64,000 nt of DNA from Vicinamibacterales bacterium. Its GTDB lineage: Bacteria > Acidobacteriota > Vicinamibacteria > Vicinamibacterales > JAMQPK01. Numbering within the stretch: the stretch's first letter is position 1; the number at the start of each line of letters is the position of its first letter. Below, piece after piece: positions 24,447-50,334 of this stretch. The stretch covers positions 24,666 through 88,665 of the forward strand of contig CAVUTO010000020.1 in the NCBI GenBank assembly GCA_963744405.1, given 5' to 3'. The notes below the pieces were generated by a model. That model saw only the letters and a list, made by a program, of their open reading frames with translations, had not been told where the DNA came from and made no database searches. The position numbers and the translations under genes were made by a program.

Positions 24447-25529
24447 ATGAGCCTGGAGACCGATAAGGCGCGAGCTGCGCTCGATGCCCACGTTCGAGAA
24501 ATCGTCAATTGGCATTTCGATCCTGCGACGGGATCGCTATTCTGGTTGGAGTACGCCAAAAAACTCGGATGGGATCCGAGAAAGGAAGTCGGCGGATTCA
24601 GCGACCTGTCACGGTTCCCGGCGTTCGAAGACGAGTGGCTGCGCGGCGGTCCCGTGCAGCGCTGGATTCCGAAAGGGTTCGACGGCAAGCCGGTCTACGT
24701 GTTCGAGACCGGCGGCACGACCGGCATCCCCAAGACGCGGGTTGCGTTCGACGATTTCCGCACGGATTACGAGCTCTTCAGCCGAACGCTGCCCGACGAG
24801 TTTTTCCCCAAGGGTTCGAATTGGCTGATGCTGGGGCCTTCGGGCCCTCGCCGGCTCCGGCTCGCCGTCGAGCATCTCGCGCAGTTCCGTGGCGGAATCT
24901 CGTTCTGCGTCGACCTCGATCCACGATGGGTCATCAAGCTGATCAAGAAAGGCTGGATGGACCATCTCGATACGTACAAGGGTCACGTCATCGATCAGGC
25001 CGTGTCGATTCTGCAGGCCGGCCACGACATCCGGTGCATGTTTACAACGCCTAAGCTGCTCGAGTCGCTGGCGCTGCGTCTCGAGTCGATGGGGTCCTCG
25101 ATCCGGAAGGCGGGGATCACGGGCATTTTCTCGGGCGGCACCGAGTTCACGCCGCAGTGGAACCGCTTCGCGCATGAAGAGCTGCTCGACGGCGCGTATA
25201 TGACACCGACCTACGGCAATACGCTGATGGGCCTGGCGGCCAGCGCGCCAACCGGTCCCGAGAACAACTATAAAATTACGTATCACGCGCCGCAGCCGCG
25301 CGCGGTCATCGAAGTCGTCGACTTCGATGACGCATCGAAGCTCGTCGAGTACGGGCAGACGGGCCGTGTGAAATTGACGACGTTGACGAAGGAGTTTTTC
25401 GTGCCGGGATTTCTCGAGCGCGACGAAGGCGAGCGCGAGCCGCCGCACGACAAATATCCCTGGGATGGCGTCAGCGGCGTGCGGCCATTCAGGGGCTTCG
25501 CCGCGACAACGACAGTAGGGGTGTACTGA
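24447..25529 (+). CDS. Adenylate-forming enzyme (PaaK/LuxE-like, ANL superfamily)
   Basis: 360-aa ORF. Has FETGGTTGIPK (P-loop-like AMP motif) and GIFSGGTEFTP, plus PaaK/LuxE-like length and layout. Confidence 0.75.
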   Translation: MSLETDKARAALDAHVREIVNWHFDPATGSLFWLEYAKKLGWDPRKEVGGFSDLSRFPAFEDEWLRGGPVQRWIPKGFDGKPVYVFETGGTTGIPKTRVAFDDFRTDYELFSRTLPDEFFPKGSNWLMLGPSGPRRLRLAVEHLAQFRGGISFCVDLDPRWVIKLIKKGWMDHLDTYKGHVIDQAVSILQAGHDIRCMFTTPKLLESLALRLESMGSSIRKAGITGIFSGGTEFTPQWNRFAHEELLDGAYMTPTYGNTLMGLAASAPTGPENNYKITYHAPQPRAVIEVVDFDDASKLVEYGQTGRVKLTTLTKEFFVPGFLERDEGEREPPHDKYPWDGVSGVRPFRGFAATTTVGVY

Positions 25530-25534
25530 CGCTG

Positions 25535-25693
25535 TGGTTCTGGGTGCTGGGTGCTGGGGTTCTAGGTTCTGGTTCGGGGTTCTGGGTTCTTGGTTCGCCG
25601 ATCGAACCCGCGGACCTGAAACGCGAACCTAGAACCAGAACCCCAGAACCAAGAACCGGAACCTCAGAACCCCAGAACCTAGAACCCGGAACC
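25535..25693. repeat. Long inverted simple repeat (GGTTCTGG / CCAGAACC), second complete copy
   Basis: Left arm 25535-25597, right arm 25625-25693. Occupies the whole spacer between the stop at 25529 and ATG 25696. Confidence 0.85.
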
Positions 25694-25695
25694 GT

Positions 25696-27121
25696 ATGAT
25701 CACTATTCCAATTCTCCGTTGGGGCCAACCCTACTCGAGCATGGACGTCGATGAGCTGAAGCACTTCCTCACCGGCGAGCCGATTGCGCGGGTGGGCCGG
25801 GCGAATGCCGGCCTGATCCAGCGTGATATGCGCAAGGCCTCGAATGCACGCGACGCATTGCGCAAGATTCCAGTCACCGACCTGATCGCCATGATGAAAG
25901 TGGCGGGCGACCGGTATATGAACGCCGAGCTGCCGCTTGGGGACGGTTCGCAGACGCCCGATGATTTCGCCAGGCAGCAGTCGGCGAGCACCGGTCTGCC
26001 CGTGGCGCTGTGCCGCGCGAACATGAAGAAAAATCAGTTCGTCCTCAGCGAGATGGGCAACATCCTCAAGTCGCTGACGCGCGGCCTCGATCTGAACGTC
26101 CTCACGACCGGCTGCGGCGAAGAGAACGGCGTCCCGATCAGCTACCAGGCGCAGAGCCCTGTCCTCGGGCTCGTCCTCCCGTCGAATTCGCCTGGCGTGC
26201 ACACGCTGTGGCTGCCCATCATCCCGATGCAGATCGGGCTCGTGTTGAAACCGGGCCCGCAAGAGCCATGGACGCCCTTTCGCGTTGCCGAAGCCTTTTT
26301 CCAGGCCGGCATTCCGCGCGAAGCGATCTCGATTTATCCGGGCGAAGCCGAAGTCGGCGCAGCCGTGGTGGCTGCGTGCGGCCGGAGTTTGATTTTCGGC
26401 GGGACGGCCACGGTCGAACGTTACAAAGGCAACCCGCACGTGCAGGTGCACGGGCCCGGCTTCTCGAAGATCGTGTTCGGCGATGATTGCGTCGACGACT
26501 GGGAGCGCTACGTCGACATGATGGCCGACAGCGTCTTCCTGAACAGCGGCCGCGGCTGCATCAATTGTTCTGGCATCTGGGTCAGCCGCAACAGCCGCGA
26601 AATCGCCGATGCACTGGCCAAGCGCCTCGCGGCGATTCCGGCGCTGCCGCCGGACGACCCGAACGCCAGCCTTGCCGCGTTTACCGTTCCCGGAATGGCA
26701 GACGCGATCTCGCAGTCGATCGACGTCGACCTGAAGGCGGCCGGCGTCACCGACTACACCGCGAAGTACCGAGACACGCCGCGCGTCGTCAAGAACGGCC
26801 GGCGCAGAGTACCTGCTGCCGACAGTCGTGCACTGCGAATCGCCGGAGGCGGCCATCGCGTCGAAAGAGTACATGTTCCCGTTCGTCACCGTCGTCGAGT
26901 GTCCAGAGGCGAAGCTGCTCGAGGCTATGGGGCCGACGCTTGTCTGCACGGCGATTACGGAGAAACCGGAGCTGCGCCGAGAGTTGCTCGACGCGACGCA
27001 CATCGATCGGCTGAATCTCGGGCCCGTTCCGACCATCCGGCTCAACTGGCTGCAGCCGCACGAGGGCAACATCGTCGATTTTCTGTACCGGCCGCGCGCT
27101 CTACAATCAGCGCCAGTATGA
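25696..27121 (+). CDS. Aldehyde dehydrogenase superfamily / LuxC-like acyl-CoA reductase, frameshifted near 26797-26803
   Basis: VLPSNSPGVHTLWLPIIP and FLNSGRGCINCSGIWV (catalytic Cys context). After ..RVVKNG the homology continues in the frame of ORF 26828..27121 (AEYLLPTVVHCESPEAAIASKEYMFPFVTVVE). Confidence 0.8.
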
Positions 27122-28423
27122 GCGGAGCGAGCCCCTGAAGATCCTTTTCATCACCGCGGGCGCGGCGGGGATGTACTGCGGCAGCTGCCTGCGAGACAAC
27201 GCCCTCGCCGCCGAGCTGAAGTCCCGCGGGCACGATGTCGTCCTCGTTCCCCTCTACACGCCCACGCTGACCGACGAGCCCAATGTCAGCGAACAGCGCG
27301 TCTTTTTCGGTGGCATCAGCGTCTATCTTCAGCAGCACGCCGGGTTCTTCCGGTGGGCGCCCCGCATCTTCGACAAGTTGCTCGACGCGCCCTGGCTCAT
27401 CAAGGCCGCTTCCTCGAGATCGATTCCAACTGATCTGCGGTTGCTCGGCGAAATGACGATCTCGATGCTCAAGGGGGAGGATGGCTTTCAGCGCAAAGAG
27501 TTCGAGAAGATGCTCGAGTGGCTGGTGAGTGAGCCGGCGCCTGACGTCGTGCAGTTGCCGAACACATTGCTGGTGAGCCTCGCGCCGTCGCTGAGACGAG
27601 CTCTGAAGGCGCCGATCCACTGCACGCTGCAGGGCGAAGACCTGTTTCTCAACGCTCTCACGAAGCCACACCGTGCCGAATCGATCGACCTGATTCGGAA
27701 AAATGCGGAGTCGGTCGATCGGTTTACGGCGGTGAGCGAATATTACGCCGACTTCATGGCGAGCTACTTGTCAATTCCGCGCGTGAAAATCGACGTCGTG
27801 CCGCTCGGCATCAATCTCGATGGATTCGATCGAAGGCACGATGCGCCGGCTGAAAGGCCATTCACGGTCGGGTATCTTGCGCGGGTCGCGCCGGAGAAGG
27901 GGTTGCTGGGCCTGTGCGAAGCGTACGTGCAATTCAGGCAGATGCCAGGCGTCGATCGAGCGCGACTCGAAGTGGCCGGGCTATATCGCTGCCGATCAGC
28001 AACCGTATCTCGAAGCGATGCGAGCGGACGCTGACGAGCGCGGGCTTCGGCGCGGAATTTCACTATCGCGGCGCGCTCGACCGCGAGCAGAAGATCGATT
28101 TTCTTCGAAGCCTCGACGTCTTCTCGGTGCCGACGGTGTACGTCGAACCAAAGGGGCTGTTTCTGCTCGAGGCGATGGCGTGCGGAGTGCCGGTGGTGCA
28201 GCCGCGGCACGGCGCTTTTCCCGAAATGCTCGCAAAGACGTCGGGAGGGATCCTCGTCGCGCCGGGCGATGCGAAGAGCCTCGCCGAAGGGCTCCACGAA
28301 TTGTGGAAGAAGTCCGGCGCAACGCGTCGAGCTCGGCCGGAACGGCTTCGAAGGCGTCCGCAAACACTACAGCATCAGCCGGTCGGCCGATCGCATGCTC
28401 GAAGTGTATGCGACAGTAGGGTG
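27118..28423 (+). pseudogene. Glycosyltransferase family 4 (GT-B), at least four frame changes
   Basis: ATG 27118 overlaps the ALDH stop (ATGA). Frame switches are at:
- the C-run 27132-27135
- the G-run 27978-27980 (..LEVAG|YIAADQQPYLEAMRAD)
- about 28030-28055 (..AEFHYRGALDREQKIDFLRSLDVFSVPT..EAMACGVPVV)
- about 28313-28320 (..RVELGRNGFEGVRKHYSISRSADRMLEVYATVG stop 28423). Confidence 0.8.
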
Positions 28424-28444
28424 AAGGATTCCCGCAACAGAAAC

Positions 28445-29114
28445 GTGCTCAACGCTGAAAGGAGTCGGCAAATCGTTTCCGTCACCTCAAGGCGACCTGC
28501 CGGTGCTCTCCGATGTGTCATTGTCGTTCGCACCTGGTGATGCCGCGGCAATCATGGGACCGTCGGGGAGCGGGAAGAGCACCCTGCTGTACATTCTCGG
28601 CGCGCTCGAGCCGCCGACGACCGGGTCAGTGACGCTCGACGGCACCAATCCGTTCAGCTTGTCCCAGAAAGATCTCGCGGCGTTCCGCAACAAGGAAATC
28701 GGCTTCGTGTTTCAGGATCATTGCCTGTTGCCGCAGTGCAGCGTCATCGAGAACGTGCTCATTCCAACGCTCGTAGGGCCGGCCGATTCCGGCGGCGACG
28801 CGCACGCGCGCTTGCTGGTCGACCAGGTCGGACTTTCGCATCGCATCGCACACCTTCCGGGCCAGCTGTCCGGCGGCGAGAAGCAGCGCGTCGCGCTGGC
28901 TCGTGCGCTGGTTCGTCGCCCCCGGCTCCTGTTGTGCGACGAGCCGACGGGCAATCTCGATCGGGCTTCGGCCGAATCGGTCGCGTCGCTGCTCTTCGAG
29001 CTGCAGCGGAAGCAGCAGGCGATTCTGATTGTGGTGACGCATAGCGCCGATCTCGCCGCGCGGTTTCCCATCCGCTTCGATCTCGTCGATCGGAAGCTGC
29101 AGCGCGTGGCGTAG
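28445..29114 (+). CDS. ABC transporter ATP-binding protein (YbbA/LolD/MacB type), N-terminus possibly frameshifted
   Basis: Walker A GPSGSGKST, signature LSGGEKQR, Walker B LLCDEPT. In-frame upstream sequence LKGVGKSFPSPQGDLPVLSDVSL has no ATG/GTG. GTG 28445 is one frame off (switch near 28452-28455); CTG 28455 is the alternative. Confidence 0.85.
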
Positions 29115-29119
29115 CTCCG

Positions 29120-32100
29120 ATGAAAGCCAGCACTCTGCAGCGCCGAAGCCTTCGTCATTACTGGCGTACGAACGTCGCTGTTATCGGCGGCGTAGCCATT
29201 GCGGTCGCGGTGCTGGCCGGTGCGCTGATGGTGGGCGTCTCGGTTCGCGCAAGCCTCCGCGACCTCGTTTTGCAGAGGCTGGGTGCTACCGATCGCGTCA
29301 TCGTGGCTCAGGGATTCTTCCGGGAACAACTCGCGGGCGCGTTCGGTCGATGCCGTTCCGCTGATCCTTGTTGAAGGCTTTGTCGCAGCGCAGGAAAGCG
29401 GCCGCCGTGCGTCGCGCGTGCAGGTATACGCAGTTGACGATCGGTTCTGGCGGTTTCACGGCCTCGATCGCGTGAAAGCGCCGTCGGGCAACGAGGCGCT
29501 GCTGAGCGAAGGCCTTGCCGAGGAGCTCGCCGCCGCCGGCGGCCAGTCGGTGATTCTTCGCGTGGAGAGCTCATCGGCGATTCCAACCGAGTCGCTCCAC
29601 GGCAGGAAAGAAGACGTCGGCCGCAGCCTGCGGCTGACCGTGCGTCAGGTGCTCGCACGCGAGGACCTGGGGGAGTTTTCGCTCAGCCCGCGACAGGGTT
29701 CGATCCGCGCGATCTTCGTGCCGCTCGCCAGACTGCAGGCGCTCGCTCGAGCAGCGCCAGCGCGCGAACGCGATTCTGGTCGCCAGCCTCGATTCTGCCG
29801 GCGTGGAGCGGCGACTCCGCGAGTCTGCCCTCGTCGACGATCTCGGCGTGCGCGTGCGTGCGTTGGACGCGCTCGGTGTCATCGCTGTCGAAAGCCATAG
29901 CACGATTCTGAACGACGCGACTGCCGCCACGGCAATCCGGGCGGCCGAGCGCTCGAAGCTGAACGTGATACCCACGCTGACCTACCTGGCGAATTCAATT
30001 CGAGTCGGCGAGCGTGACATTCCATATTCCACAATTACGGCCATCGACCTGGGGGCGCTCGGCTGGGTGGGCGCGAAAGCCCAAAGCCAGGGGCCAGGCG
30101 CCATCGTCTTGAACGACTGGGCAGCGCGAGATTTGCGGGCCGCTGTAGGTGATCGCGTCACCATCGACTACTACGTGTGGGAGTCCGAAGGGCGGTTGCG
30201 AACGCAGGCGGCGGAATTCCTCGTTGCGCGCATCGTCCCCATTCTGGGACCTGCTGCGGACCGAGATCTCGTCCCCGAGTATCCGGGCATTACGGATTCG
30301 GATCGCGTCGCCGATTGGGATCCGCCGTTTCCGATCGACTTGAATCGCGTGCGTCCAATCGACGAGGAATACTGGAACCGCCATCGCGCGACGCCGAAGG
30401 CGTTCATTCCTATCGAGCGAGGACAGCAGTTGTGGAGTTCGCGCCACGGCGCCCTGACCGCGCTGCGCCTCGTTCCGCCGCGCGACACTTCGCTCGCGGA
30501 CGCGCGCGCGCAATATGAAACAGCGCTGCGCGCCGAGCTCGACCCGCTCGCGGCGGGATTTTCCGTGTATGACGTGCGCGCGCAGAGCCTCGCGGCGTCG
30601 AGTGGCGCGACCGACTTCGGCGAGTACTTCACCTACTTCAGTACGTTCCTGGTCGTCTCGGCGCTCCTGCTTGCCGGGTTGTTCTTCAAGCTCGGCGTCG
30701 AGCAGCGCCTGCAGGAAGTCGGGCTGCTGCAGGCGCTGGGGCTCGATCCCGCCGCGATTCGCCGCCTCTTTGCCGGCGAGGCGCTTGTCCTTGCGGTGAT
30801 TGGCGGCATAGCGGGCATCGCCGGCGCGATTGGCTACAGCGCGCTCATCATGCTCGGCCTGCGCACGTGGTGGGTCGGTGCCGTCGGGACGACGGCGCTT
30901 GCGCTGCACATCGACCCGGTTTCGCTCATCGCCGGCGCCGCTGCTGTCGTGTTGATCGCCGTCGCATCTATCTGGTGGTCCCTCCGCGCGCTCGCGTCCG
31001 CATCGACTCGGTCACTGCTGAAGGGGTCAGTCCCAGGCGTGGGGTCTGACCCCGGCGGGCGAAATCACTCAAAAAACCGGACAAGTGTGCCCTTGGGGTC
31101 TGACCCTCGTACTGCACTGGCAGCCGGCGGCTTTGCACTTGCACTGCTCATTGGGACTGCCGCCGGCGCCGTGCCGCGGGTGGCCGGATTCTTTGGCGCC
31201 GGCGCGCTCTCGCTCATCGCCATGCTGTGGTTGTCGTCGGCCTGGCTGCGCCGGGGACGCTGGGGCCCGCTTCACGGGCACGGCCCCTGGGCGGTGTGGC
31301 GGCTCGGATGGCGCAACACGGCATACCGGCCTGCGCGAAGTGTGCTGTGCATCGCGCTCATCGCCTTTGCGACCTTTGTCATCGTTGCCGTCGAGGCGTT
31401 CAAGCGCGACGAATCGGCCGCGTTGCTCGATCGTCAGTCGGGAGGTGGAGGATATCCGCTGCTGGTCGAGATGCTCCTTCCCGTCGTTCACGATCTCAAC
31501 GACACGTCAGGACGCGACGCGATGAATCTGCCCTCAGGCGGTGCGCTCCAGGATGTTCGCTTCGATCGCTTTCGGGTGCGCCCTGGCGAAGATGCGAGCT
31601 GCCTGAATCTCTACCAGCCGAAGAATCCGCGCATCATCGCGGCGACTCCGGATTTCATCAACAGCGGTCGATTTGCCTTTCATAGTTCGACGGCCGAAAC
31701 GCCGGAGGAGCGCGAGAACCCGTGGCTGTTGCTCAACCGCCCGCTCGAGGACGGCGTTGTGCCGGTTATCGCAGACGCCAACTCGATGACCTACGTGCTG
31801 CACATGAAGCTTGGCGACGAGTTCGTACTGCCGGGATCGTCCGAGCGCCCGGTCCGGCTCCGGCTGGTCGCGGCGTTGTCCGACAGCATTTTCCAGGGAG
31901 AGCTCGTGATGTCCGAGCAGCCCTTCGTGCGTCTGTTTCCCGAATGGGAGGGGTATCGGTTCTTCCTCGCGGACGCGCCCGCCGGGCAGGCACCGGCCGT
32001 GACCGAACTGCTGGAGTCGCGATTGTCGGATTTCGGCGTCGACGTGGCCTCGACGGCCGAACGCCTCGCGGGCTTTCACCGCGTTGAATATACTTACCTC

Positions 32101-32472
32101 TCGACCTTTCAGATGCTCGGGGGGCTGGGACTGCTGCTGGGAACGCTCGGTCTCGGCGCGATTCTTCTGCGGAATGTGCTCGAACGGCGGAGAGAGCTCG
32201 CGGTGCTGCGCGCGCTGGGCTACACGCGCCGGGATTTCCTGACGATGGTCGTGGCCGAGAATGTGCTGCTGCTGGTCGCGGGCCTCGCAATCGGTACGTT
32301 CTGCGCGCTGGTCGCAATCGCGCCAGTGTTTCTCGATCGCGGTGGACGATTGCCGATAGATACGCTGGCCCTGCTGCTCGTCGGCGTGTTGGGAACCGGG
32401 TTGCTTGCGTCGCTGGGGGCAATGGCCGCAGCCCTGCGATCGCCGTTGTTGTCGGCTTTGAAGACTGAGTAG
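29120..32472 (+). CDS. Large FtsX-family ABC permease (YbbP-like, two FtsX halves), two frameshifts
   Basis: N-terminus RRSLRHYWRTNVAVIGGVAIAVAVLAGALMVG. Frame switches are near 29343-29347 (..QLAGAF|VDAVPLILVEGF) and 29745 (..LARLQAL|LEQRQRANAILVAS). The remainder is table ORF 29803..32472, with two FtsX TM bundles. Confidence 0.85.
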
Positions 32473-32493
32473 TGTCCGCCTTCAGGCGGACCG
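32470..32493 (+). repeat. REP-like hairpin GTAGTGTCCGCCTTCAGGCGGAC
   Basis: Stem GTCCGCC / GGCGGAC with loop TTCA, 15 nt upstream of ATG 32508. One of four copies in this window. Confidence 0.8.
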
Positions 32494-32507
32494 TACGAGG
32501 ACAACTT

Positions 32508-33749
32508 ATGGACACATCACATCGTCTGGTCGTTGGAACCATCGTGCTCGCCGGATTCACTGTCGTCGTTGCCGGGCAGAACGCCGGTCCCGACTGGCCG
32601 CAGTGGCGAGGTCCTCGCCGCGACGGCACGCTCACGTCTTTCACCGAGCCGAAGGTCTGGCCCGATGCCCTCACTCAGAAATGGAAGATTACGGTCGGCG
32701 AAGGGTACGCGACGCCGATTCTCGTAGGCAATCGCATCTTTCAGTTTTCCCGCCAGGGCGAAAACGAAATCCTGCGCGCCATCGACGCGGAGAGCGGCAA
32801 AGTGGTCTGGGAGCAGAGCTACCCCGCGCCGTTCGAGATGACATCGGGCACTAAGCGTCATGGGCCGGGGCCGAAATCGACGCCGACCTTTGCGGACGGC
32901 AGAATCTTTACGCTCGGCATGAGCAGCATCGTGACGGCCTGGGATGCCGCGACAGGAAAGGTGCTATGGCGTATTCCGTCTGGCCCCCTGCAGCCTCAGT
33001 TCCACACGGCGATGTCGCCGCTGGTTGATCGCAGCCAGATGATTCTTCATCTCGGCGGCGACAAGCAGGGCACGCTCAACTCGTTCGATCCCGTGACTGG
33101 AAAAGTGCGATGGAGCTGGACCGGCGACGGACCCGCCTATGGATCGCCGATCATCACCGACCTCGGCGGCACCCGGCACCTCATGCTCTTCTCGCAGCAG
33201 AACTTCATCGGCGTAAACCCTGAGACCGGCGCGTTGTTGTGGAGTGTGCCCTTCGAGGCGCGCTCGACGACGAACTCCATCACGCCGCTGGTCTACGGCA
33301 ACACGATCATTGTTTCCGGTCAGGGCAAACCTGTCACCGCGTACATCGTCGCGAACAAGGGCGGCAAGTGGGTGGCCGATCTTGCGTGGGAAAACCCGGC
33401 GATCCAGATGTCGTTCAGCAACGGCGTGCTCATCGGCGATGCCATCTTCTCGATGTCTCCGCTCAACAGCGGCCAGTTCTTCTGGGCTGACGCGAAAACC
33501 GGCAAGACCTTGTGGCTGTCGGAGCCGCGCCAGGGCGGCAACGCGGCGATTACGCGCTCGGGCGATCTGTTGTTCGTGCTGAAGGACACGGGCGAGCTCA
33601 TGGTTGGCAAGGGAACGCCAGGCGTGGCCTTTACGCCTGCCAAGACCTACACGGTGGCCACGAGCGCCACCTGGGCGCCGCCGGTTATCTCGGGCAACCG
33701 CATCTTCGTGAAGGACGTCGAGACGCTCGCGCTCTGGACGTTGAACTAG
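32508..33749 (+). CDS. PQQ-like beta-propeller repeat protein P2
   Basis: ATG 32508 with GAGG upstream. TM/signal VVGTIVLAGFTVVVAG, DWPQWRGPRRDG motif and repeated propeller blades. Confidence 0.88.
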   Translation: MDTSHRLVVGTIVLAGFTVVVAGQNAGPDWPQWRGPRRDGTLTSFTEPKVWPDALTQKWKITVGEGYATPILVGNRIFQFSRQGENEILRAIDAESGKVVWEQSYPAPFEMTSGTKRHGPGPKSTPTFADGRIFTLGMSSIVTAWDAATGKVLWRIPSGPLQPQFHTAMSPLVDRSQMILHLGGDKQGTLNSFDPVTGKVRWSWTGDGPAYGSPIITDLGGTRHLMLFSQQNFIGVNPETGALLWSVPFEARSTTNSITPLVYGNTIIVSGQGKPVTAYIVANKGGKWVADLAWENPAIQMSFSNGVLIGDAIFSMSPLNSGQFFWADAKTGKTLWLSEPRQGGNAAITRSGDLLFVLKDTGELMVGKGTPGVAFTPAKTYTVATSATWAPPVISGNRIFVKDVETLALWTLN

Positions 33750-33770
33750 GCGAGCAAGGTATATTGACTC

Positions 33771-35099
33771 ATGGGTGACGCGCGCGGGACCACGGTTGAC
33801 GAGACAGAGATCGGCAGCTATTTCGTCGCTAACTATCCGCCGTTTTCCGTCTGGACTGCCGATGCCGTCGAGCGCGACGCGCTGCCGGCGTTGAGCTCGA
33901 CGCCGGCGCCTGTGCCGCTCGGGCTGTACCTGCACGTCCCGTTCTGCCGGAAGCGCTGCCATTTCTGCTACTTCCGCGTCTACACCGACAAGAACGCCCA
34001 GGAAGTCGAAGAATATCTCGACGTGATGGCGCGCGAGTGGGAGATCTACAACACCTATCCTGCGATCAATGGGCGCCCGCTCAACTTCGTATACTTCGGC
34101 GGCGGCACTCCCTCGTTCCTGTCGGTGCGCCAGTTGAGCGGCCTGGTGCAACGGTTGACCGCCGTCACTCCATGGTCGTCGGCTGAAGAGATCACGTTCG
34201 AGTGCGAGCCCGGCACGCTGACCGAACCGAAGCTTGCCGCCATTCGCGAGATGGGGGTGACGCGTCTCAGCCTCGGCGTCGAGAACTTCGACGATCACAT
34301 TCTCGAGGTGAACGGGCGGGCCCACCGGTCTCCGGAAATTCTCCGCGCGTATCAGTTTGCGCAGTCGCTCGGTTTTCCGCAGATCAACATCGATTTGATT
34401 GCCGGCATGCTCGGCGAAAGCGAGGAGAACTGGCAGCGGTGCGTGGAGAAAACCATCGAGCTCGCGCCCGACAGCGTCACCGTGTATCAGATGGAACTGC
34501 CGTTCAATACGACGATCAGCAGCGATGTGTTGAAGGGCACCGGCCGCTTCCAGGAGCACGTCGCGAGCTGGTCGACCAAGCGACGCTGGGTTGATGAGGC
34601 ATTCGAGGCGCTGCAGAAGGCCGGCTACACAATCGGCAGCGCGTACACCGCAGTGAAGGATCCCGAGCGCACGAAGTTCATCTATCGCGATCGCCTGTGG
34701 CAGGGCGCCGATTTGGCGGGGCTTGGCGTCGCGTCGTTCGGGCACATCAATGGCGTGCACATGCAGAATCTCGATCAATGGGACACATATAGCGGCAGGA
34801 TTCGCGAGGGCGCACTGCCGCTGAGCCGCGCGTACCGGCCCGACCAGGAAGAGCGGCTCATCCGCGAGCTCGTCTTGCAGCTGAAACTCGGCCGCGTCCG
34901 TCCGTCCTACTTCGCCGGAAAGTACGGCGTCGACATCCTGCAGCGGTTCGAAGGGCCGTTGCGCTCGCTCGATGCAGACGGCTTCCTTGCCGAAGCCGGC
35001 CCCGACAGCGTCACTCTCAGTCGCGCCGGACTCCTGCGCGTCGACTCATTCCTTCCACGGTTCTTTCAGCCGAAACATGCGGGCATCCGGTACACGTAA
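33771..35099 (+). CDS. HemN-like radical SAM protein (coproporphyrinogen III oxidase family / class C)
   Basis: CRKRCHFCYF (CxxxCxxC), YFGGGTPS, and a HemN_C-like C-terminal region. Confidence 0.88.
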   Translation: MGDARGTTVDETEIGSYFVANYPPFSVWTADAVERDALPALSSTPAPVPLGLYLHVPFCRKRCHFCYFRVYTDKNAQEVEEYLDVMAREWEIYNTYPAINGRPLNFVYFGGGTPSFLSVRQLSGLVQRLTAVTPWSSAEEITFECEPGTLTEPKLAAIREMGVTRLSLGVENFDDHILEVNGRAHRSPEILRAYQFAQSLGFPQINIDLIAGMLGESEENWQRCVEKTIELAPDSVTVYQMELPFNTTISSDVLKGTGRFQEHVASWSTKRRWVDEAFEALQKAGYTIGSAYTAVKDPERTKFIYRDRLWQGADLAGLGVASFGHINGVHMQNLDQWDTYSGRIREGALPLSRAYRPDQEERLIRELVLQLKLGRVRPSYFAGKYGVDILQRFEGPLRSLDADGFLAEAGPDSVTLSRAGLLRVDSFLPRFFQPKHAGIRYT

Positions 35100-35646
35100 G
35101 CGAACCGCGCGCATCAGCCACAACGGGATCCTGTTTCCGCTCGACTTCGTATACGCGAGGTCGGGTGTCGAACTTCCGCAGGTGAACGCGATCGATCCCG
35201 ACGACATTCCGCTGCCGTACCGATCGCTGCTCGTGCACAAGACCGACATGACGCTGACGCTCGAGCGTCATTTCGGCGGCCGTGTCGCGCTGCGTCCGCT
35301 CGCGACATTTCTTCACGGCCCATGGTATTTCCGTCGCGTTCTCCTCGCCCAGGAATACACCGGGCGCCCCGTCGAGATGGGCGCGATCCGCATCAGAATC
35401 GCTGCATTTCCCGCGCGCATCCAGAAGCAGATTCTGAAAAACGACGTGCCGCTCGGACGGCTCCTTCGCGACGGCGGCGTCGACTACGAAAGCCGGCCGA
35501 CTGTGTTTTTGTCGGTAACTCCGAATCCGGAGATGATGGGCGTGTTCTGGATGCGCGAGCCGAAGACGCTCTACGGCCGCCGGACCGAGATGATCCGCGA
35601 CGGCGCCAAAATCGGCGATATCGTGGAAGTGCTGCCGCTCGTATGA
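35077..35646 (+). CDS. Chorismate pyruvate-lyase-like protein (UbiC/DUF98 fold)
   Basis: TDMTLTLERHFGG, WYFRRVLL, VPLGRLLR and LYGRRTEMIRDGAKIGDIVEVLP align by eye with the E. coli UbiC segments MTKRFEQQG, YWLREILL, TPLGRYLF and [23 protein letters not shown]. Confidence 0.7.
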   Translation: MRASGTRKRTARISHNGILFPLDFVYARSGVELPQVNAIDPDDIPLPYRSLLVHKTDMTLTLERHFGGRVALRPLATFLHGPWYFRRVLLAQEYTGRPVEMGAIRIRIAAFPARIQKQILKNDVPLGRLLRDGGVDYESRPTVFLSVTPNPEMMGVFWMREPKTLYGRRTEMIRDGAKIGDIVEVLPLV

Positions 35647-35669
35647 ACTGCGAGCGGCACGACTAAACA

Positions 35670-36082
35670 ATGCCTTCTGAATACCGGCTGAAGCGCCGCG
35701 TGCAGTTCTACGAAACCGATATGGCCGGCATCGTGCACTTCAGCTGGTTCTTTCGCTATCTCGAAGAGGCCGAGCACGCGATGTGGCGCGAGGCCGGCGT
35801 CAGCATCGCCGACGGATCGGGCATCGGGTGGCCGCGCGTCGAAGCGTCGTTCGAGTTTCACCGGCCGTTAAGTTCGAAGACGAGTTCGAGGTGCACCTGC
35901 GTATCGTCGGCAAGGACGCGCGGACGATTCGCTATGAAGGCATCGTCTCGAAGGGCGACACCCGGATTGCGACGGGGAAGATCGCAGTCAAGTGCGTCAG
36001 CAAGAAGCCGGGGGAGCCGATGAAGTCGATCGACATTCCGCCTGAAATCGACGCCCTTTTCCAGGTGGCGCCTGGAGTCTGA
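35670..36082 (+). CDS. 4HBT-type acyl-CoA thioesterase (hotdog fold), frameshifted near 35863-35872
   Basis: VQFYETDMAGIVHFSWFFRYLEEAEH (YbgC/4HBT motif). After ..EASFEFHRP the homology continues in the frame of ORF 35783..36082 (KFEDEFEVHLRIVGKDARTIRYEG). Confidence 0.8.
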
Positions 36083-36083
36083 C

Positions 36084-37195
36084 ATGTCGAACGGGCAGCT
36101 CGCGCTGCAGTTCCTGATTCAGCTCGCGATTATCCTGATGGCGTGCCGGGCCGTCGGCGGCACTGATGCCTGCGCATCGGGCAGCCAAAGGTGATCGGCG
36201 AGATGATCGCCGGTATTCTGCTCGGCCCGTCGCTGCTCGGCCTGCTTCGCGCCGTCCGTGCAGGCGGCACTGTTTCCGCCCGCGTCGCTGCGGCCTGCTG
36301 TCGGTCGTGAGCCAGATCGGACTCGTGCTCTACATGTTCGTCGTCGGCATGCATCTGCACACGAGCTTCATCAAGCAGGCGTTCCGCGGTGCGCATGCTG
36401 ATTTCGCTCGCCGGAGTCGTCTGCGCCGTTCCTGCTCGGCGCAGCGCTGGCGTCAGTTTCTGTACGCAGACGGACCGTTTCTTCACGGCGAACGTCTCGA
36501 GCTGGCAAAGCATGATGTATCTCGGGCGCCGCGATGTCGGTGACGGCGTTTCCCGTGCTCGCGCGCATCATCCAGGAACGAGGCATCGGCGGCACGGCGC
36601 TGGGCACGCTGGCGCTGGCGGCGGGAGCCGTCGATGACATCATCGCGTGGACTCTGCTGGGCATCGTGCTTGCCAGCGTCGATCGCGACGTTTGAGATTG
36701 TCGCGATTCGTCGCGTCGCACGCGGTGTTCGTGGCATTCGTCGCTGGCGCGCTGATGCCGCGCGGGCAGGCTGACGGAGACACTCAGCCGAAGGATCGAG
36801 CCGGTCGCGTCGCACGTGCTGGTGCCTTTCTTCTTCGCCTACTCCGGCTTGTCGACGCAGTTGACGCTGCTGTGGTCGGCCGAACTGGTGTGGCTCTTGT
36901 TCGTGGTGATTTTGATCGCGTCGGTTGGAAAGGCGGTGGGATGTGGGGCGCAGCCCGGCTGGCCGGCAGGTCCAACCACGAAGCGATGGCGCTTGGCGCG
37001 CTCATGAACGCGCGCGGGCTGATGGAGCTCGTCATCCTGAACATCGGGCTGCAGCGCGGTCTGATCACGCCCACGCTTTTCACTGTGATGGTCACCATGA
37101 CGCTCGTGACGACGATGGCTGCGGGGCCACTGTTCGAACGGGTGTGGCGAGGATCGGCGGAGGTGCCGAATGGCGCAGGCGTCCCGGTCCGCTGA
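36084..37195 (+). pseudogene. Cation:proton antiporter (CPA2/Kef-type membrane domain), heavily frameshifted
   Basis: Recognisable fragments are scattered over all three frames:
- MSNGQLALQFLIQLAIILMACRAVG
- IGQPKVIGEMIAGILLGPSLLG
- LLSVVSQIGLVLYMFVVGMHLHTSFIKQ
- MSVTAFPVLARIIQERGIGGTALGTLALAAGAVDDIIAWTLLGIVLA
- HAVFVAFVAGALMP
- VLVPFFFAYSGLSTQ
- ALGALMNARGLMELVILNIGL. Confidence 0.75.
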
Positions 37196-38450
37196 GCGGC
37201 TGTCGGCGCTGATAGATCGCATCTACGGACGGAATCCGTTCTATACGCGAAAGCTCGACGCGGCTGGACTTGATCCGGCCTCGCTGAGGTTTCCGCGTGA
37301 TCTGTCCAAGCTGCCGGTGACGACGAAAAGCGAGCTGGTTGCCGATCAGCAATCCTCGCCGCCGTGGGGCACGAATCTCACAGAGCCGCTCGACCGATAC
37401 ACCCGGTATAACCAGACATCGTCCACGACGGGAAGCCCGCTTCGCTGGCTCGACACGAACGAAAGTTGGCAGTGGATGCTCGAGTGCTGGAAAGCCGTCT
37501 ATGAGGGCGCGAAGGTCGATTCGCGCGATCGCATCTTCTTTCCGTTTTCCTTCGGGCCGTTCCTCGGATTCTGGACGGCGTTCGAAGCGGGCTGCCAAAT
37601 CGGGGCCCTCTGCATTCCTGCCGGCGGCATGTCGAGCCAGGCGCGTCTCGCGATGATCGAGACATTGCGGCCGACGATCGTCTGCTGCACGCCGACATAC
37701 GCCCTTCGATTGCTCGAGGTCTCTGGTGAAGAGCGCGACGGCAAGCCCGATCTCTCCAAGAGCTCTGTGCGCATGCTGATCGTGGCAGGGGAGGCGGGTG
37801 GAAGTATTCCGTCGACGCGCGAACGGATCGAAAAAGGCTGGGGAGCGCGGGTGATCGACCATCACGGGCTCACCGAAGTTGGTCCGATCAGCTTCGAATG
37901 CTGGGAGGCTCCTGGCGCACTTCATCTGAACGAGGCTGAATACATCTGTGAGATTCTCGAGACCGACTCGGATCGACCGGTCGCGGACGGCGAACGGGGC
38001 GAGCTCGTGGTGACGAACCTCGGCCGGGCACCCAGTCCGCTGATTCGCTATCGCACCGGCGACATCGTCGTCCGGCGATCCGGCTCGTGCGCGTGCGGGA
38101 GCGGTTTTGCCCGTCTCGAAGGCGGCATCCTCTCGCGCGCCGACGACATGGTGAACGTGCGCGGCGTCAACGTCTATCCGTCTGCCGTTGAAGCGGTTGT
38201 GCGCCGGTTTCCCGAAGTGGGAGAGGACCGCGCCACTGTGACGGCAAATGGCGCGCTGCGGGAGCTGTCGATCGAGATAGAGATGGGTGGCGCTGATAGC
38301 GGAGCGGACGCCGCCGCGCGCATCGCGGCCGCGCTTCGCGAATCTCTCGGCCTGACGGTGCCTCTGCGTGTCGTCGATGCCGGCTCGCTTCCGCGCTTTG
38401 AAATGAAGGCCCGGCGGTTTGTAATTGCAGACCAGGGTCAGTCACCGTAG
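37170..38450 (+). CDS. Phenylacetate-CoA ligase family protein (PaaK / F390-synthetase-like aryl-acid ligase)
   Basis: 426-aa intact ORF with FYTRKLDAAG, QTSSTTGSPLRW (AMP motif), YRTGD and VNVRGVNVYP. Confidence 0.88.
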   Translation: MAQASRSAERLSALIDRIYGRNPFYTRKLDAAGLDPASLRFPRDLSKLPVTTKSELVADQQSSPPWGTNLTEPLDRYTRYNQTSSTTGSPLRWLDTNESWQWMLECWKAVYEGAKVDSRDRIFFPFSFGPFLGFWTAFEAGCQIGALCIPAGGMSSQARLAMIETLRPTIVCCTPTYALRLLEVSGEERDGKPDLSKSSVRMLIVAGEAGGSIPSTRERIEKGWGARVIDHHGLTEVGPISFECWEAPGALHLNEAEYICEILETDSDRPVADGERGELVVTNLGRAPSPLIRYRTGDIVVRRSGSCACGSGFARLEGGILSRADDMVNVRGVNVYPSAVEAVVRRFPEVGEDRATVTANGALRELSIEIEMGGADSGADAAARIAAALRESLGLTVPLRVVDAGSLPRFEMKARRFVIADQGQSP

Positions 38451-38515: not shown

Positions 38516-38836
38516 TTGGCTGGAGTGACACCGGAGATGCTGATCGAGCAGATGCGCAGCGGGCGTGCGCCGTTGATTCTCGACGTGCGCTCGAAGCGCG
38601 AGTTTGACGATGGCCACGTGCCCGGCGCCGTTCACGTTCCGTTTTGGCAGGTCGGCCGGCATTGGCGGAAATTTGTGTCGGCCCGCGAGCTGCCCGTTGT
38701 GGTGTACTGCGGTCATGGGCCGCGTGCCTACATGGCTGGCGCGTCGCTGAAGCGCAGAGGATTCACGAACGTGGTCTATCTGTCCGGACACATGAAAAGG
38801 TGGAAGGACATGAATCTTCCGCTCGAGGGGAAATAA
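38516..38836 (+). CDS. Rhodanese-like domain protein
   Basis: LILDVRSKREFDDGHVPGAVHVP and the active-site loop YCGHGPRA. Its stop overlaps the next ATG (TAATG). Confidence 0.85.
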   Translation: MAGVTPEMLIEQMRSGRAPLILDVRSKREFDDGHVPGAVHVPFWQVGRHWRKFVSARELPVVVYCGHGPRAYMAGASLKRRGFTNVVYLSGHMKRWKDMNLPLEGK

Positions 38837-40107
38837 TGGCGTCCATTTTCCGTGCTATCGCCGGCGTCACTGCGGTCCTGGGCCTGGCCTCCGCCTTCAC
38901 GCTTGCGCAGCAGGTCGAGGTGCGCATGGTGACCGTGGAAGGAGAGGGCACGAAGTACTGGCCCGTGTGGCGCGGTCCTTCGGGGCAGGGGCTCGTCACC
39001 GGGACGTATCCCGACAGTTGGTCTGCAACCGAAAACGTCGCGTGGAAGAAACCCGTAGCAGGCCGCGGCAACTCTTCCCCCATCGTCTGGGCCGACAGAA
39101 TTTTTCTGACGACCGCCCACGACGGCGGTCGCCGCGTGTCGTTGATTGCGTTCCGGCGGTCCGATGGCACGCAGTTATGGGAGACGTTCGCGCCCGACGG
39201 CAGAACAGGCCGCGCGCACTACAAGAACGGGCACGCCTCTGCGACGGCCTTGACCGACGGCACGCTCGTTTATGCGTCCTTCGGCAGCCGGGGGTTGGCG
39301 GCTTTCGACTTCAACGGCAAGCTCGTCTGGCACAAGGACCTGGGCGACGTCGACAACTATCACGGCGCGGCGGGGTCGCCGCTGCTTTACAAGAATCGCG
39401 TGATTCTCTATCAGGATTTTGACGGAGGCTCGTTTGTCGCCGCTTTCGACTCGCGCACCGGTAAGGAGCTGTGGCGCACTCCGCGGCGTGCGTCGGTCGG
39501 ATGGGGCACGCCGGTGGCGGTGCGCGTCGGCACGCGCGACGAGATCATCGTCAGCAGCCAGAGCGCCGTCACGGCATACGATCCCGACAGCGGCCGCGAG
39601 CTCTGGGTCTGCGATGGCAATTCTTTCGAAGTGATTCCGACTCCCGTCGTCGGCCACGGCCTCGTGTTCGCGTCATCGGGCCGCGTTGGGCCGACGTTGG
39701 CGATTCGGCCGGGAGGCCGCGGGAACGTGACGCGCACGCATCTCGCCTGGACGAGTCCGAAGGGGTCGCCGTTTGTGCCTTCGCCTATCGTCGTCGGCGA
39801 TCAGCTCTACATGGTGAACGACATGGCGAGCGTCGTCACCTCGTTCGACGCGGCTACGGGAAAAGTACTATGGCAGGGAAGACTGGGCGTGGCTCAGCGC
39901 GAAGGGTTTTCGGCATCGCCTGTCGCCGTTGACGGGAAAGTCTTCTTCACGAACGATCAAGGAGAGACGTTCGTGGTCAAGGCCGGCCCCACGTTCGAAC
40001 TGCTGCGCACCAATAGAATCGGCGAAACGACGCTGGCCTCGCCGGCGCTCGTCGACGGCCGCTGGTACATCAGGACGGATCGAAGCCTATTCGCCATCGG
40101 GAAATAG
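38836..40107 (+). CDS. PQQ-like beta-propeller repeat protein P3
   Basis: ATG 38836, signal peptide MASIFRAIAGVTAVLGLASAFTLAQQ, YWPVWRGPSGQG, ENVAWKKPVAGRGNSSPIVWADRIFL. Confidence 0.9.
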   Translation: MASIFRAIAGVTAVLGLASAFTLAQQVEVRMVTVEGEGTKYWPVWRGPSGQGLVTGTYPDSWSATENVAWKKPVAGRGNSSPIVWADRIFLTTAHDGGRRVSLIAFRRSDGTQLWETFAPDGRTGRAHYKNGHASATALTDGTLVYASFGSRGLAAFDFNGKLVWHKDLGDVDNYHGAAGSPLLYKNRVILYQDFDGGSFVAAFDSRTGKELWRTPRRASVGWGTPVAVRVGTRDEIIVSSQSAVTAYDPDSGRELWVCDGNSFEVIPTPVVGHGLVFASSGRVGPTLAIRPGGRGNVTRTHLAWTSPKGSPFVPSPIVVGDQLYMVNDMASVVTSFDAATGKVLWQGRLGVAQREGFSASPVAVDGKVFFTNDQGETFVVKAGPTFELLRTNRIGETTLASPALVDGRWYIRTDRSLFAIGK

Positions 40108-45535: not shown

Positions 45536-46084
45536 ATGCACGACAGCGCGCTGGTCGCGTTTTATCGAGGCGACGGACGCGATCATCGAGGCCGCTCGCT
45601 GAGCGATATCCACGAGTTCGACTTCTACGAGCTCGAATTTCATCACGACTACATCCAGTGGCTCTTCCCACTTCCTGAGCCGAGCGGCGCGAACGAGTCG
45701 GCGCCGTTGCTGTCAGAGCGCGACATCGCCGCATTTGCGTCAGACGACTCGCTCAGGAAAGCGCTGTTGCAATCATTGGAGCTCATGCTGCAGTTCTATT
45801 GCCTCGAGCCCGCAGTCCGCGGCGAGTCTGTCGAAGTCGTGCGCGGCCCCAACTACGACGAGCGGAGCGCTCTCTGGCTGACGGCCGGAAATCATAACTT
45901 CCTGCGCATCAGCAGGATGCTGCGCTCGCTGACGCTCCTGGGCTGTTCGGGCTACGCTGCGGCCTTGCTCGAGTGTCTCGAGGATATCTACGCTGAGAAC
46001 GCGCAGGCAATCGGCAATACGCCCATCGGGTACTGGCGCCGCGCCATAATGGGCCAGTCGTATGCCCCTCGCCGCTGGAACTAG
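45536..46084 (+). CDS. Opioid-growth-factor-receptor (OGFr) N-terminal-domain-like protein, copy 1
   Basis: HHDYIQWLFPLPEPSGAN and NHNFLRISRMLRSL match my recollection of the bacterial OGFr_N-like family. Confidence 0.75.
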   Translation: MHDSALVAFYRGDGRDHRGRSLSDIHEFDFYELEFHHDYIQWLFPLPEPSGANESAPLLSERDIAAFASDDSLRKALLQSLELMLQFYCLEPAVRGESVEVVRGPNYDERSALWLTAGNHNFLRISRMLRSLTLLGCSGYAAALLECLEDIYAENAQAIGNTPIGYWRRAIMGQSYAPRRWN

Positions 46085-48462: not shown

Positions 48463-48466
48463 CGCT

Positions 48467-49493: not shown

Positions 49494-49546
49494 CCACGAG
49501 GCACGAAGACAGATCACGAAGGCGCGAAGACGCGAAGTCGAATGCT

Positions 49547-50297: not shown

Positions 50298-50334
50298 TCC
50301 TGTTCAAGGCTGGAGTCGGTACTATGACTGTCAG

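Follow-up and report, generated by a model that had tools for sequence, protein, structure and literature searches.

The biosynthesis of ambigols involves a chorismate lyase, an adenylating enzyme, a carrier protein, a halogenase and a thioesterase. Clusters that combine a chorismate lyase with a flavin-dependent halogenase, such as bmp (tetrabromobiphenyldiol), are well known to yield halogenated phenolics (PMC10579414). Here we describe a gene cluster in a 64,000-nt stretch of DNA from a Vicinamibacterales bacterium (contig CAVUTO010000020.1, positions 24,666 to 88,665; hereafter the window), at the centre of which is a short gene for a UbiC-like protein. It is accompanied by genes for a HemN-like radical S-adenosylmethionine (rSAM) enzyme, an enzyme of the flavin-dependent halogenase family (FAD enzyme), a glycosyltransferase of the GT4 family, a hotdog thioesterase, a PaaK-like ligase, membrane proteins and secreted beta-propellers. 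We tentatively propose, with slightly less than even confidence, that the window contains the Vicinamibacterales version of a multi-phylum cluster, which may lead from chorismate to a modified, probably halogenated, and glycosylated compound of the hydroxybenzoate type.

A gene cassette shared by several phyla

The genes of the window were called from the listing of open reading frames (ORFs) and from hidden Markov model (HMM) scans with Pfam and NCBIfam, and gene context was drawn from the loci of relatives, since look-ups of the exact sequences of the window's rSAM protein and of P0001 gave no recorded contig. These loci were gathered with sub-alignments of the UbiC-like family. About 170 of them (designated by L numbers) were compared; gene content was scored in 80 genome and 80 metagenome loci, and gene calls were made on selected contigs. 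The core that emerged consists of a PQQ_2 propeller, the HemN-like rSAM enzyme, the UbiC-like protein, the FAD enzyme, the GT4, the hotdog thioesterase, a small membrane protein and the PaaK-like ligase, and it was found in Vicinamibacteria, Lentisphaeria and Calditrichota and on many soil metagenome contigs. The gene for the HemN-like enzyme is located upstream of the UbiC-like gene in 67 of 73 genome loci and 45 of 46 metagenome loci, and a halogenase-family FAD gene directly downstream of it in 46/78 and 31/41, respectively. A hotdog thioesterase gene lies at most 4.5 kb from the UbiC-like gene in 70 of 73 genome loci (metagenome loci: 8/18), a PaaK-like ligase gene at most 7 kb from it in 66/69 (2/15), and a GT4 gene at most 4.5 kb from it in 0/73 (8/18).

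In Vicinamibacteria the order of the core is rSAM, UbiC-like, halogenase, (GT4), thioesterase, (membrane protein) and PaaK-like ligase, and most loci of this class carry the core alone, without the block of genes that precedes it in the window. The order in Lentisphaeria is propeller, rSAM, UbiC-like, FAD enzyme, GT4 and thioesterase, with overlapping reading frames, and that in Calditrichota is UbiC-like, FAD enzyme, thioesterase, a membrane protein of 190 amino acids (aa) and PaaK-like ligase. Loci of the soil group have the propeller, rSAM, UbiC-like, FAD enzyme, GT4 and thioesterase genes followed by those for an EamA-like membrane protein of 187 aa and the ligase. In the metagenome loci L141, L142, L147 and L149, a gene with two ABC ATPase domains follows the UbiC-like gene and replaces the halogenase-family gene.

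The initial annotation of the window had described twelve consecutive plus-strand genes at 24447-38450. The ORF listing and the HMM scans bore out this run, its domain content and its overlapping starts and stops (35077/35099, 37170/37195 and at 32472). The expected synteny was also found, since the order of the twelve genes is identical in L002 and near-identical in L001 and L004-L018. But the interval is incomplete: the cluster continues past 38450 to the halogenase-family gene at 42933-44240, which had been overlooked. Compared with the gene orders given above, this gene appears to have moved downstream of the ligase gene in the sub-clade of the window. It would be a constant member of the cluster, and it changes the predicted chemistry.

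Polyketide synthase (PKS), fatty acyl-AMP ligase-acyl carrier protein (FAAL-ACP) and MmpL domains were absent from the window locus and from the examined relatives according to HMM scans and gene calls, in agreement with the earlier remark that the locus has no PKS genes. Full-text literature searches likewise gave no account of a cluster with these genes together.

The UbiC-like protein

The gene at 35077-35646 (plus strand) encodes a protein of 189 aa, which was recognised as a distant homologue of UbiC and DUF98 by profile and structure comparison only. There was no match in Pfam or NCBIfam even at E <= 10, the protein is below the gathering threshold for PF04345 and PF01947, and distant members of the family have no match in these databases either. 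The protein has 983 close homologues, mostly in Vicinamibacterales. In an exhaustive search the family comprised 1303 clusters at 50% identity, and its named members include Lentisphaeria and Calditrichota.

A profile built from the close homologues only gave nothing but a chance match when compared to the PDB. With a profile of 42 diverse members, one structure was found, AF1396 (2NWI, Pfam DUF98), with E=8e-5. The protein was further modelled with AlphaFold (AF2; predicted local distance difference test score, pLDDT, 79), and the best Foldseek match of the model was again 2NWI (E=8e-8, template modelling score, TM, 0.75), followed by GntR-type UTRA domains and the E. coli chorismate lyase (1G81/1G1B) with E about 1e-4. 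From the AF2 model, Foldseek and the profile, the chorismate-lyase/UTRA fold is predicted. Alignment of the family profile with E. coli UbiC by hhalign, for which the UbiC sequence was verified against 1G1B, gave a probability of 85% and E=6e-6 and placed R86 on R76. The elements DMTxTLE, R86-x-V-L-L, PLG, LYGRR and VEILP line up with DSMTKRFE, R76-E-I-L-L, PLGRY, LWGRR and TELFLP of UbiC, in which we take Arg76 and Glu155 to be catalytic or product-binding residues. Among 121 sequences of the family M58 is conserved in 119, R86 and G127 in 118 each, R168 in 116 and E184 in 111, and PLG is nearly invariant.

Based on these comparisons, we regard the UbiC-like protein as a genuine, remote homologue with the chorismate-lyase fold and the key Arg, which stands outside both Pfam families. 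Thus, the assignment of gene 35077 as UbiC/DUF98-like was right with respect to remote homology and the retained Arg, but not with respect to membership in a Pfam or NCBIfam family. Correspondingly, the suggested HMM check for lyase similarity came out negative with a plain Pfam search and positive with deeper profile and structure comparison.

Two natural fusions tie the rSAM enzyme, the UbiC-like protein and the ligase together. In P0202 (L086/L087, marine metagenomes) a HemN-like rSAM enzyme is joined to a UbiC-like domain, and in P0240 (L089) a UbiC-like domain is joined to a PaaK-like ligase. To our knowledge, a fusion to a chorismate-lyase-like domain has not been described for class C rSAM methyltransferases, and we know of no typical pairing of UbiC or Rv2949c with a HemN-like rSAM enzyme. 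The P0202 gene in L086/L087 lies between a propeller gene and a thioesterase (4HBT) gene, and upstream there are genes of the rhodanese and MauE families.

The halogenase-family enzyme

The product of the plus-strand gene at 42933-44240 was assigned to the flavin-dependent halogenase family by its NCBIfam and PDB matches and its motifs. The motifs GGGPAG and WFWYIP are kept in the window, L001, L084, L106 and L135. All five sequences also keep a candidate catalytic Lys in (K/R)KYSVQF, as judged by motif position, and this position fits what we take to be the K-x-x-[IV]-x-F pattern of PrnA/RebH. In NCBIfam the best score was obtained with CmlS (208.7 bits; equivalog cut-off 900), and QhpG reached 142.7 bits. 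Among the ten best PDB matches there are nine named halogenases (8ZOP, 2e-63; 5BUK, 1.6e-57; 7FCO, 3E1T, 5DBJ, 5BUL, 5BVA, 3I3L and 8GU0), among them Mpy16, Bmp2, PltA, CndH, ChlB4, CmlS and RadH; the tenth, 3NIX, is an uncharacterised flavoprotein. Several of the nearest characterised relatives act on thioester-tethered aromatic substrates, which fits the logic of a ligase and a thioesterase in the same cluster. The identity of a geranylgeranyl reductase was also considered for the FAD enzyme and rejected, because the score of 128-137 bits is below the cut-off of 158.8 and the halogenase motifs are present.

The radical SAM enzyme, the thioesterase, the ligase and the membrane proteins

The rSAM enzyme (33771-35099, plus strand; Pfam Radical_SAM) contains the motifs CRKRCHFCY and GGGTP, and in all five orthologues Tyr replaces the fourth Cys of HemN. 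Its NCBIfam scores are 171.6 bits with HutW (cut-off 400) and 169.3 bits with HemN (TIGR00538, cut-off 324.95), and its PDB matches include HemN (7e-33) and the methyltransferase NocN (9e-25). HemN proper, the oxygen-independent coproporphyrinogen III oxidase, was rejected as an identity because of the missing fourth Cys and the score under the TIGR00538 cut-off. The next gene but one, at 35670 to approximately 36079 on the plus strand, encodes the hotdog (4HBT/YbgC-like) acyl-CoA thioesterase (Pfam 4HBT and 4HBT_2). The intact orthologue of 137 aa scored 54 bits with YbgC/FadM and matched aq_1494 (8e-17) and the 4-hydroxybenzoyl-CoA thioesterase 5WH9 (4e-8) in the PDB.

The aryl/arylacetate-CoA ligase (37170-38450, plus strand) has the Pfam domains AMP-binding and AMP-binding_C_2, and it scored 188.8-208 bits with PaaK (TIGR02155), under the cut-off of 646; it also matched FlxY, BagE/FevW and the DVU_1553 family. 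Since the domain architecture is that of PaaK and the score is below the cut-off, its sequence would make it PaaK-like only and not a PaaK equivalog. None of the cluster members is covered by an NCBIfam equivalog.

Between the thioesterase and ligase genes, fragments of a gene for a CPA2-type cation/proton antiporter are present (36084-37195, plus strand; Pfam Na_H_Exchanger on the 3' fragment). The gene is intact in L002 (366 aa) and absent in L001. It occupies the slot of a DMT/EamA-like membrane protein of about 188 aa in other phyla, which is encoded at 11860-12423 in L106 and 5940-6506 in L135 (soil metagenomes) and at 12805-13377 in L178 (Calditrichota). The membrane proteins of L106 and L178 have the stretch GMTWL...SWG.YG.FLH.GQ..MGDPVNGRYKAFLFVGIAY in common.

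Secreted propellers

The propeller gene upstream of the rSAM gene in the window (start at 32472 or 32508, end at 33749, plus strand) encodes a secreted, BamB-like protein with a signal peptide, the motif WPQWRGP and a PQQ_2 score of 103 bits. A propeller is present upstream of the rSAM gene also in L084, L105-L169 and L176 and thus in other phyla, and the secreted propeller is better seen, from its recurrence in these loci, as a core member of the cluster than as a bystander.

In the window there are at least eight PQQ_2 propellers, and at least seven secreted BamB-like paralogues are encoded within 23 kb, one of them fused to rhodanese. This rhodanese-PQQ_2 fusion (38543-40107, plus strand) was located by tblastn with the 507-aa protein of L002 and has a Pfam PQQ_2 match. 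It is followed by a paralogue on the minus strand (40168-41490; PQQ_2 115.7 bits) and two propellers on the plus strand (41620-42936, 123 bits; 44237-45496, 97.8 bits), all three with a signal peptide. Further PQQ_2 propellers are encoded on the minus strand at 51056-52579 and 52909-54825. The same local expansion was seen in L001, L002 and L182.

The halogenase-family gene overlaps the neighbouring secreted-propeller genes by 4 bp on both sides (42933/42936 and 44237/44240). The overlaps in the region 41620-45496 imply that the translation of a cytoplasmic flavoenzyme is coupled to that of two secreted proteins. Small ORFs of 44-45 codons are located between a propeller gene and the next gene of the run in L001 (13734-13868) and L003 (18701-18838); this next gene is a second propeller gene in L001 and the halogenase-family gene in L003. 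The two small ORFs are unrelated in sequence and are probably spurious.

Directly downstream of the propeller/halogenase block, at 46062-47852, there is a gene for a Ser/Thr protein kinase fused to TolB_N and TPR; Pkinase-Tricorn/PD40 genes are found near the EhpF-like locus of L182, too. The region 47900-51000 has the lowest G+C content of the window (0.579) and no ORF of at least 200 aa. It has no Rfam match, and the Rfam scan of the whole window gave none.

The upstream block: an EhpF/EhpG-type pair, GT4 and ABC/FtsX

The first two of the twelve genes had been described as LuxE- and LuxC-like. The first (24447-25529, plus strand) encodes an adenylating enzyme of the ANL superfamily with 360 aa, which lacks the C-terminal domain, and the second (25696 to about 27115, plus strand) a protein of the aldehyde dehydrogenase (ALDH) superfamily. 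Pfam LuxE (PF04443) and LuxC (PF05893) did not match them; the only matches were a weak one to AMP-binding (24.2 bits) for gene 1 and one to Aldedh (59.9 bits) for gene 2. In the PDB, the gene 1 orthologue of L001 matched EhpF (3HGU/3L2K) over its full length (residues 24-365) with E=1e-42. The gene 2 orthologue is 24.9% identical (87% coverage, E=2e-21) to an ALDH of the ehp phenazine cluster of Pantoea agglomerans, the gene of which is directly downstream of an AMP-binding gene. Therefore, the LuxE/LuxC identity was rejected in favour of the better matching EhpF/EhpG. EhpF and EhpG were reportedly proposed by Bera et al. in 2010 to reduce an aromatic carboxylate to an aldehyde via an adenylate. 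The gene names ehpF and ehpG of the Pantoea agglomerans pair are used according to PMC11278526. In the window, L001, L002, L092 and L182 the EhpF-like gene has the ALDH gene next to it or nearly so, and by homology and adjacency we consider genes 1 and 2 a putative carboxylate reductase pair of the EhpF/EhpG type. Within Vicinamibacterales the EhpF-like protein varies little: the identity is 82-92% in the best 120 clusters among the matches listed. This conservation is far above that of its neighbours, such as FtsX with about 58% identity to L001.

The GT4 gene (about 27135-28421, plus strand) has the Pfam domains Glyco_transf_4 and Glyco_trans_4_4, and its intact orthologues of 427-451 aa have Glycos_transf_1 as well. 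The presence of a GT4 gene was correctly noted, but a start at 27118 is not tenable: this ATG is out of frame and followed by a stop after six codons, and homology begins at a CTG codon at 27135. In other phyla, GT4 homologues with 34-50% identity to the GT4 of L002 are located between the halogenase and thioesterase genes and presumably are orthologues of the window-type GT4.

The two genes that follow encode an ABC ATPase similar to LolD, YbbA and FtsE (about 28445-29114, plus strand; ABC_tran, 117.7 bits) and a large permease with two FtsX domains and MacB_PCD (29120-32472, plus strand; 1104-1146 aa in intact orthologues). In NCBIfam the ATPase scored 225 bits with LolD (cut-off 307.75) and 193 with YbbA (cut-off 336), and the permease 53 bits with ADOP (cut-off 622) and 17.6 with LolCE. 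Thus, the window proteins share their domain architecture (ABC_tran; MacB_PCD plus two FtsX) with the exporters LolCDE, YbbAP and MacB, but their scores are below the equivalog cut-offs.

Only in the sub-clade of the window, in about 12-15 of 67 genome loci, is the core adjoined by the EhpF/EhpG-like pair, the GT4 gene and ABC/FtsX; in other phyla the pair and ABC/FtsX are absent from the core neighbourhood. ABC/FtsX is found at most 7 kb from the UbiC-like gene in 12 of the 67 loci. It is missing beside the EhpF-like/ALDH/GT4 trio of L182, which lies some 17 genes away from the UbiC-like gene on one 77-kb contig, and the claim of a dedicated ABC exporter is therefore weak. In L092, rSAM and thioesterase genes on the opposite strand are inserted between the EhpF-like and ALDH genes. 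The position of GT4 within the core elsewhere, the insertion in L092 and the shared contig in L182 link the upstream block to the core. From this distribution, the EhpF/EhpG-like pair is likely to be a Vicinamibacterales addition that travels with GT4, and ABC/FtsX would be an optional neighbour.

Reading frames in the window

By tblastn with intact orthologues, at least ten frameshifts were found in approximately 16 kb, breaking six genes: one in the ALDH gene, two each in the GT4 and FtsX genes, one in the thioesterase gene, at least three in the CPA2 gene and one in the rhodanese-propeller gene. This count refers to the locus only, since the GC3 frame plot of the whole window was too noisy for counting. 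A 1-nt insertion near 26800 shifts the ALDH gene from frame 1 to frame 2; the two frameshifts of the GT4 gene compensate each other (approximately 28022-28309 are in frame 2); those of the permease gene are near 29350 and at 29725-29745; a 1-nt deletion near 35868 affects the thioesterase gene, and the frameshift in the rhodanese-propeller gene is near 38824-38884. The CPA2 gene is split over three frames with 42-59% identity to its orthologue. At the start of the ABC ATPase gene, the GTG at 28445 is out of frame, homology begins at 28452-28455 in frame 3, and the start region is uncertain. Probably, the anomalies at the starts of the GT4 and ABC genes are further single-base errors.

These breaks, above all those in the CPA2 gene, could mean that the locus is a decaying array of pseudogenes and its copy inactive in this organism, which we consider hardly probable. 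In nucleotide alignments, the indel was a single base and private to the window at three of four inspected sites, with all alignable relatives intact; at the fourth site, FtsX near 29350, no nucleotide alignment to relatives was obtained. There are no in-frame stops, and the window proteins are 81-94% identical to those of L002 (tblastn). Sister loci from long-read 'MFD' metagenome-assembled genomes (MAGs) are broken in other genes than the window, and L002, a short-read contig from JGI, has the same twelve genes all intact, so that the locus is not broken in every relative. This is the pattern of long-read indel errors. Since orthologous loci are intact, the breaks are single-base and private to the window, and sister MAGs are broken elsewhere, the frameshifts most likely are errors of the long-read assembly. 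The CPA2 gene most likely is the one that is genuinely broken, if any is.

A possible pathway and alternative explanations

From the gene content, synteny, fusions, remote homology and motifs that were observed, we infer every chemical step below, the order of the steps and the product. The UbiC-like enzyme would remove pyruvate from chorismate or a close derivative to yield 4-hydroxybenzoate, and the PaaK-like ligase would convert the latter to its CoA thioester. The halogenase-family enzyme, by halogenation or by hydroxylation, and the HemN-like enzyme, probably by C-methylation of the type of class C rSAM methyltransferases, could then tailor the thioester-bound ring. Subsequently, the hotdog thioesterase would free the acid and the GT4 would glycosylate it. 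In Vicinamibacterales, the GT4 gene would have moved beside the EhpF/EhpG-type pair, which could reduce the aryl carboxylate to the aldehyde via an acyl-adenylate, and in the sub-clade of the window the LolD/FtsX-type ABC exporter and the CPA2 membrane protein would have been attached. Either the small membrane protein, the CPA2 protein or ABC/FtsX might export the product, presumably to the periplasm, the site of the co-encoded propellers. The constant secreted propeller has no role in this scheme.

Several points weigh against it. We know of no cluster member with a known enzyme activity or product. What the HemN-like enzyme does is a guess. The Chor_lyase and DUF98 models of Pfam do not recognise the UbiC-like family, whose fold is common to non-catalytic UTRA ligand-binding domains according to Foldseek, and E184 falls one residue off E155 of UbiC when the hhalign alignment is extended, so that it is a candidate equivalent only. 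In NCBIfam the FAD enzyme further matches the monooxygenases QhpG, LodB and GoxB, and judging from these matches it may hydroxylate rather than halogenate. There is no carrier protein, flavin reductase or P450 in the cluster. In the distant metagenome group the ligase (2/15), GT4 (8/18) and thioesterase (8/18) are less constant. Finally, the rSAM enzyme is 55-60% identical across phyla, and the cluster is single-copy with housekeeping neighbours, which suggests primary or cofactor metabolism more than a halogenated secondary metabolite.

The last point leads to the idea that the product is not a secondary metabolite: it could be a cofactor or ligand of the aromatic or quinone type, which is exported and serves the secreted PQQ_2 propellers encoded alongside. 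Besides the very high conservation and the housekeeping neighbours, this is suggested by the occurrence, in Vicinamibacteria, the soil group, Lentisphaeria and the P0202 fusion loci, of a propeller gene that precedes the rSAM gene and codes for a signal peptide, by the 4-bp overlaps of the halogenase-family gene with propeller genes in the window, by the conserved small membrane protein, which could export the product, and by the resemblance of the FAD enzyme to the quinone-cofactor maturases QhpG, LodB and GoxB. The propellers also weakly match the NCBIfam model 'acido-empty-quinoprotein', and it is tempting to speculate that the cassette makes and exports a new chorismate-derived cofactor or ligand, which would supply the 'empty quinoproteins' of phyla that lack PQQ, such as Acidobacteriota, with their own cofactor. 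We regard a propeller cofactor as distinctly improbable, and its empty-quinoprotein form as very improbable: most PQQ_2/BamB-like propellers are scaffolds without enzymatic function, and this genome has a hugely expanded set of them, so that their adjacency may be incidental, and Calditrichota loci have no propeller within 10 kb. A pair of a ligase and a hotdog thioesterase resembles PaaK/PaaI, and these two enzymes together with the UTRA-type fold and the lack of a Pfam lyase match might also be read as a catabolic or detoxification module for aromatic acids, in which the UbiC-like protein would be a non-catalytic ligand-binding domain of the UTRA type. The chance of this is very small in our view, since the Arg aligned to the catalytic Arg of UbiC and the M, PLG and E elements are nearly invariant, catabolic modules do not usually include a GT4 and a halogenase-family enzyme, and no ring-cleavage or beta-oxidation genes are near in the gene calls of the compared loci.

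Two further alternatives concern the extent of the cluster. All twelve genes could form a single pathway similar to that of mycobacterial p-hydroxybenzoic acid derivatives and phenolic glycolipids (p-HBAD/PGL), with a p-hydroxybenzoate glycoconjugate exported by the YbbA/YbbP-like ABC system. The twelve-gene order, conserved and intact in L002 and sister MAGs, and the linkage of the UbiC-like, ligase, thioesterase and GT4 genes across phyla are in line with this. It is nevertheless unlikely, because the EhpF/EhpG-like pair and ABC/FtsX are beside the core in one sub-clade only, the L182 trio is without ABC/FtsX, this reading takes no account of the halogenase-family gene and the propellers, a FadD22-type FAAL, a PKS and MmpL are missing, and the lyase-like protein does not belong to Pfam DUF98. 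Of the proposed p-hydroxybenzoate-derived glycoconjugate, the glycoside is kept as a reasonable product class in view of the cross-phylum linkage, and the fixed unit of twelve genes is abandoned. Conversely, the EhpF-like/ALDH/GT4/ABC/FtsX block and the core could be unrelated operons, which merely adjoin in this clade. Most Vicinamibacteria loci carry the core alone, a gap of 167 bp follows gene 1, and the EhpF-like protein is far more conserved (82-92%) than the core proteins, suggesting a different selective regime. Such a chance neighbourhood also seems unlikely to us: the presumed GT4 orthologue is inside the core in other phyla, rSAM and thioesterase genes lie between the EhpF-like and ALDH genes in L092, and L182 has both sets on one contig. 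Three different arrangements keep the two sets close, which argues for functional coupling of block and core.

Significance

The logic of chorismate lyase, halogenase, ligase and thioesterase is of an already known kind, and the cluster is a variant of it. What seems to be new is the lyase-like family, its coupling to a HemN-like rSAM enzyme and its partnership with a GT4 and propellers. Neither Pfam nor NCBIfam has a model for this family of 1303 clusters, and no function has been described for it. Its members are paired in almost all cases with a HemN-like rSAM enzyme, to which some are fused, and usually have a halogenase-family enzyme beside them. If the FAD enzyme is a halogenase, a halogenated, hydroxybenzoate-derived glycoside would arise from the primary metabolism of Vicinamibacteria, Acidobacteriota that are abundant in soil, and of members of Lentisphaerota and Calditrichota, and this would bear on the origin of natural organohalogens in soil. 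If it is not, the cluster would still point to a new pathway from the chorismate branch point, in which a lyase and a radical SAM enzyme act as a pair.

Comparison with known systems

The UbiC-like protein shares the fold and the lined-up motifs with E. coli UbiC (PF04345) and the DUF98/Rv2949c-like lyases (PF01947; 2NWI), but it is only about 13-17% identical to them and differs in the lack of a Pfam match and the location of its gene, which is nearly always beside, or fused to, that of a HemN-like rSAM enzyme. The latter resembles the class C rSAM methyltransferases (NosN/NocN, TbtI, ChuW/HutW) in its HemN-like core with CxxxCxxC and GGGTP and without the fourth Cys, and is similar to NocN and HutW, but it stays under every curated cut-off. 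The D-alanylgriseoluteic acid (phenazine) cluster of Pantoea agglomerans likewise contains an ANL enzyme of about 360 aa without the C-terminal domain, followed by an ALDH-family protein. In contrast to this cluster, there are no phenazine genes here, a benzoate-type substrate is expected and the ALDH is only about 25% identical; moreover, the function of EhpF/EhpG is itself a proposal.

The mycobacterial p-HBAD/PGL system (Rv2949c, FadD22, Pks15/1, MmpL7), to which the locus had been likened, follows the same logic of chorismate-derived 4-hydroxybenzoate, adenylating activation, glycosylation and export. The analogy holds at this level but does not extend to membership: PKS, a FAAL-ACP didomain, MmpL and a DUF98 match are missing, the glycosyltransferase is a GT4, and a halogenase-family enzyme, an rSAM enzyme and a propeller are present instead, so that the window cluster is not a member by any tested feature.

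Further parallels are the bmp-type and ambigol pathways, in which a gene of the chorismate lyase type is likewise directly coupled to a gene of the flavin-dependent halogenase family. Ambigol biosynthesis shares also the adenylating ligase and the thioesterase, and this suggests that halogenation would take place on thioester-bound 4-hydroxybenzoate. Unlike these pathways, the window cluster has no carrier protein, with CoA as the presumed handle, and no P450 coupling enzyme, and its lyase-like protein comes from a separate, unmodelled family. Its additional constant partners are the HemN-like rSAM enzyme, the GT4, the secreted propeller and the small membrane protein, and it spans several phyla in a housekeeping-like manner.

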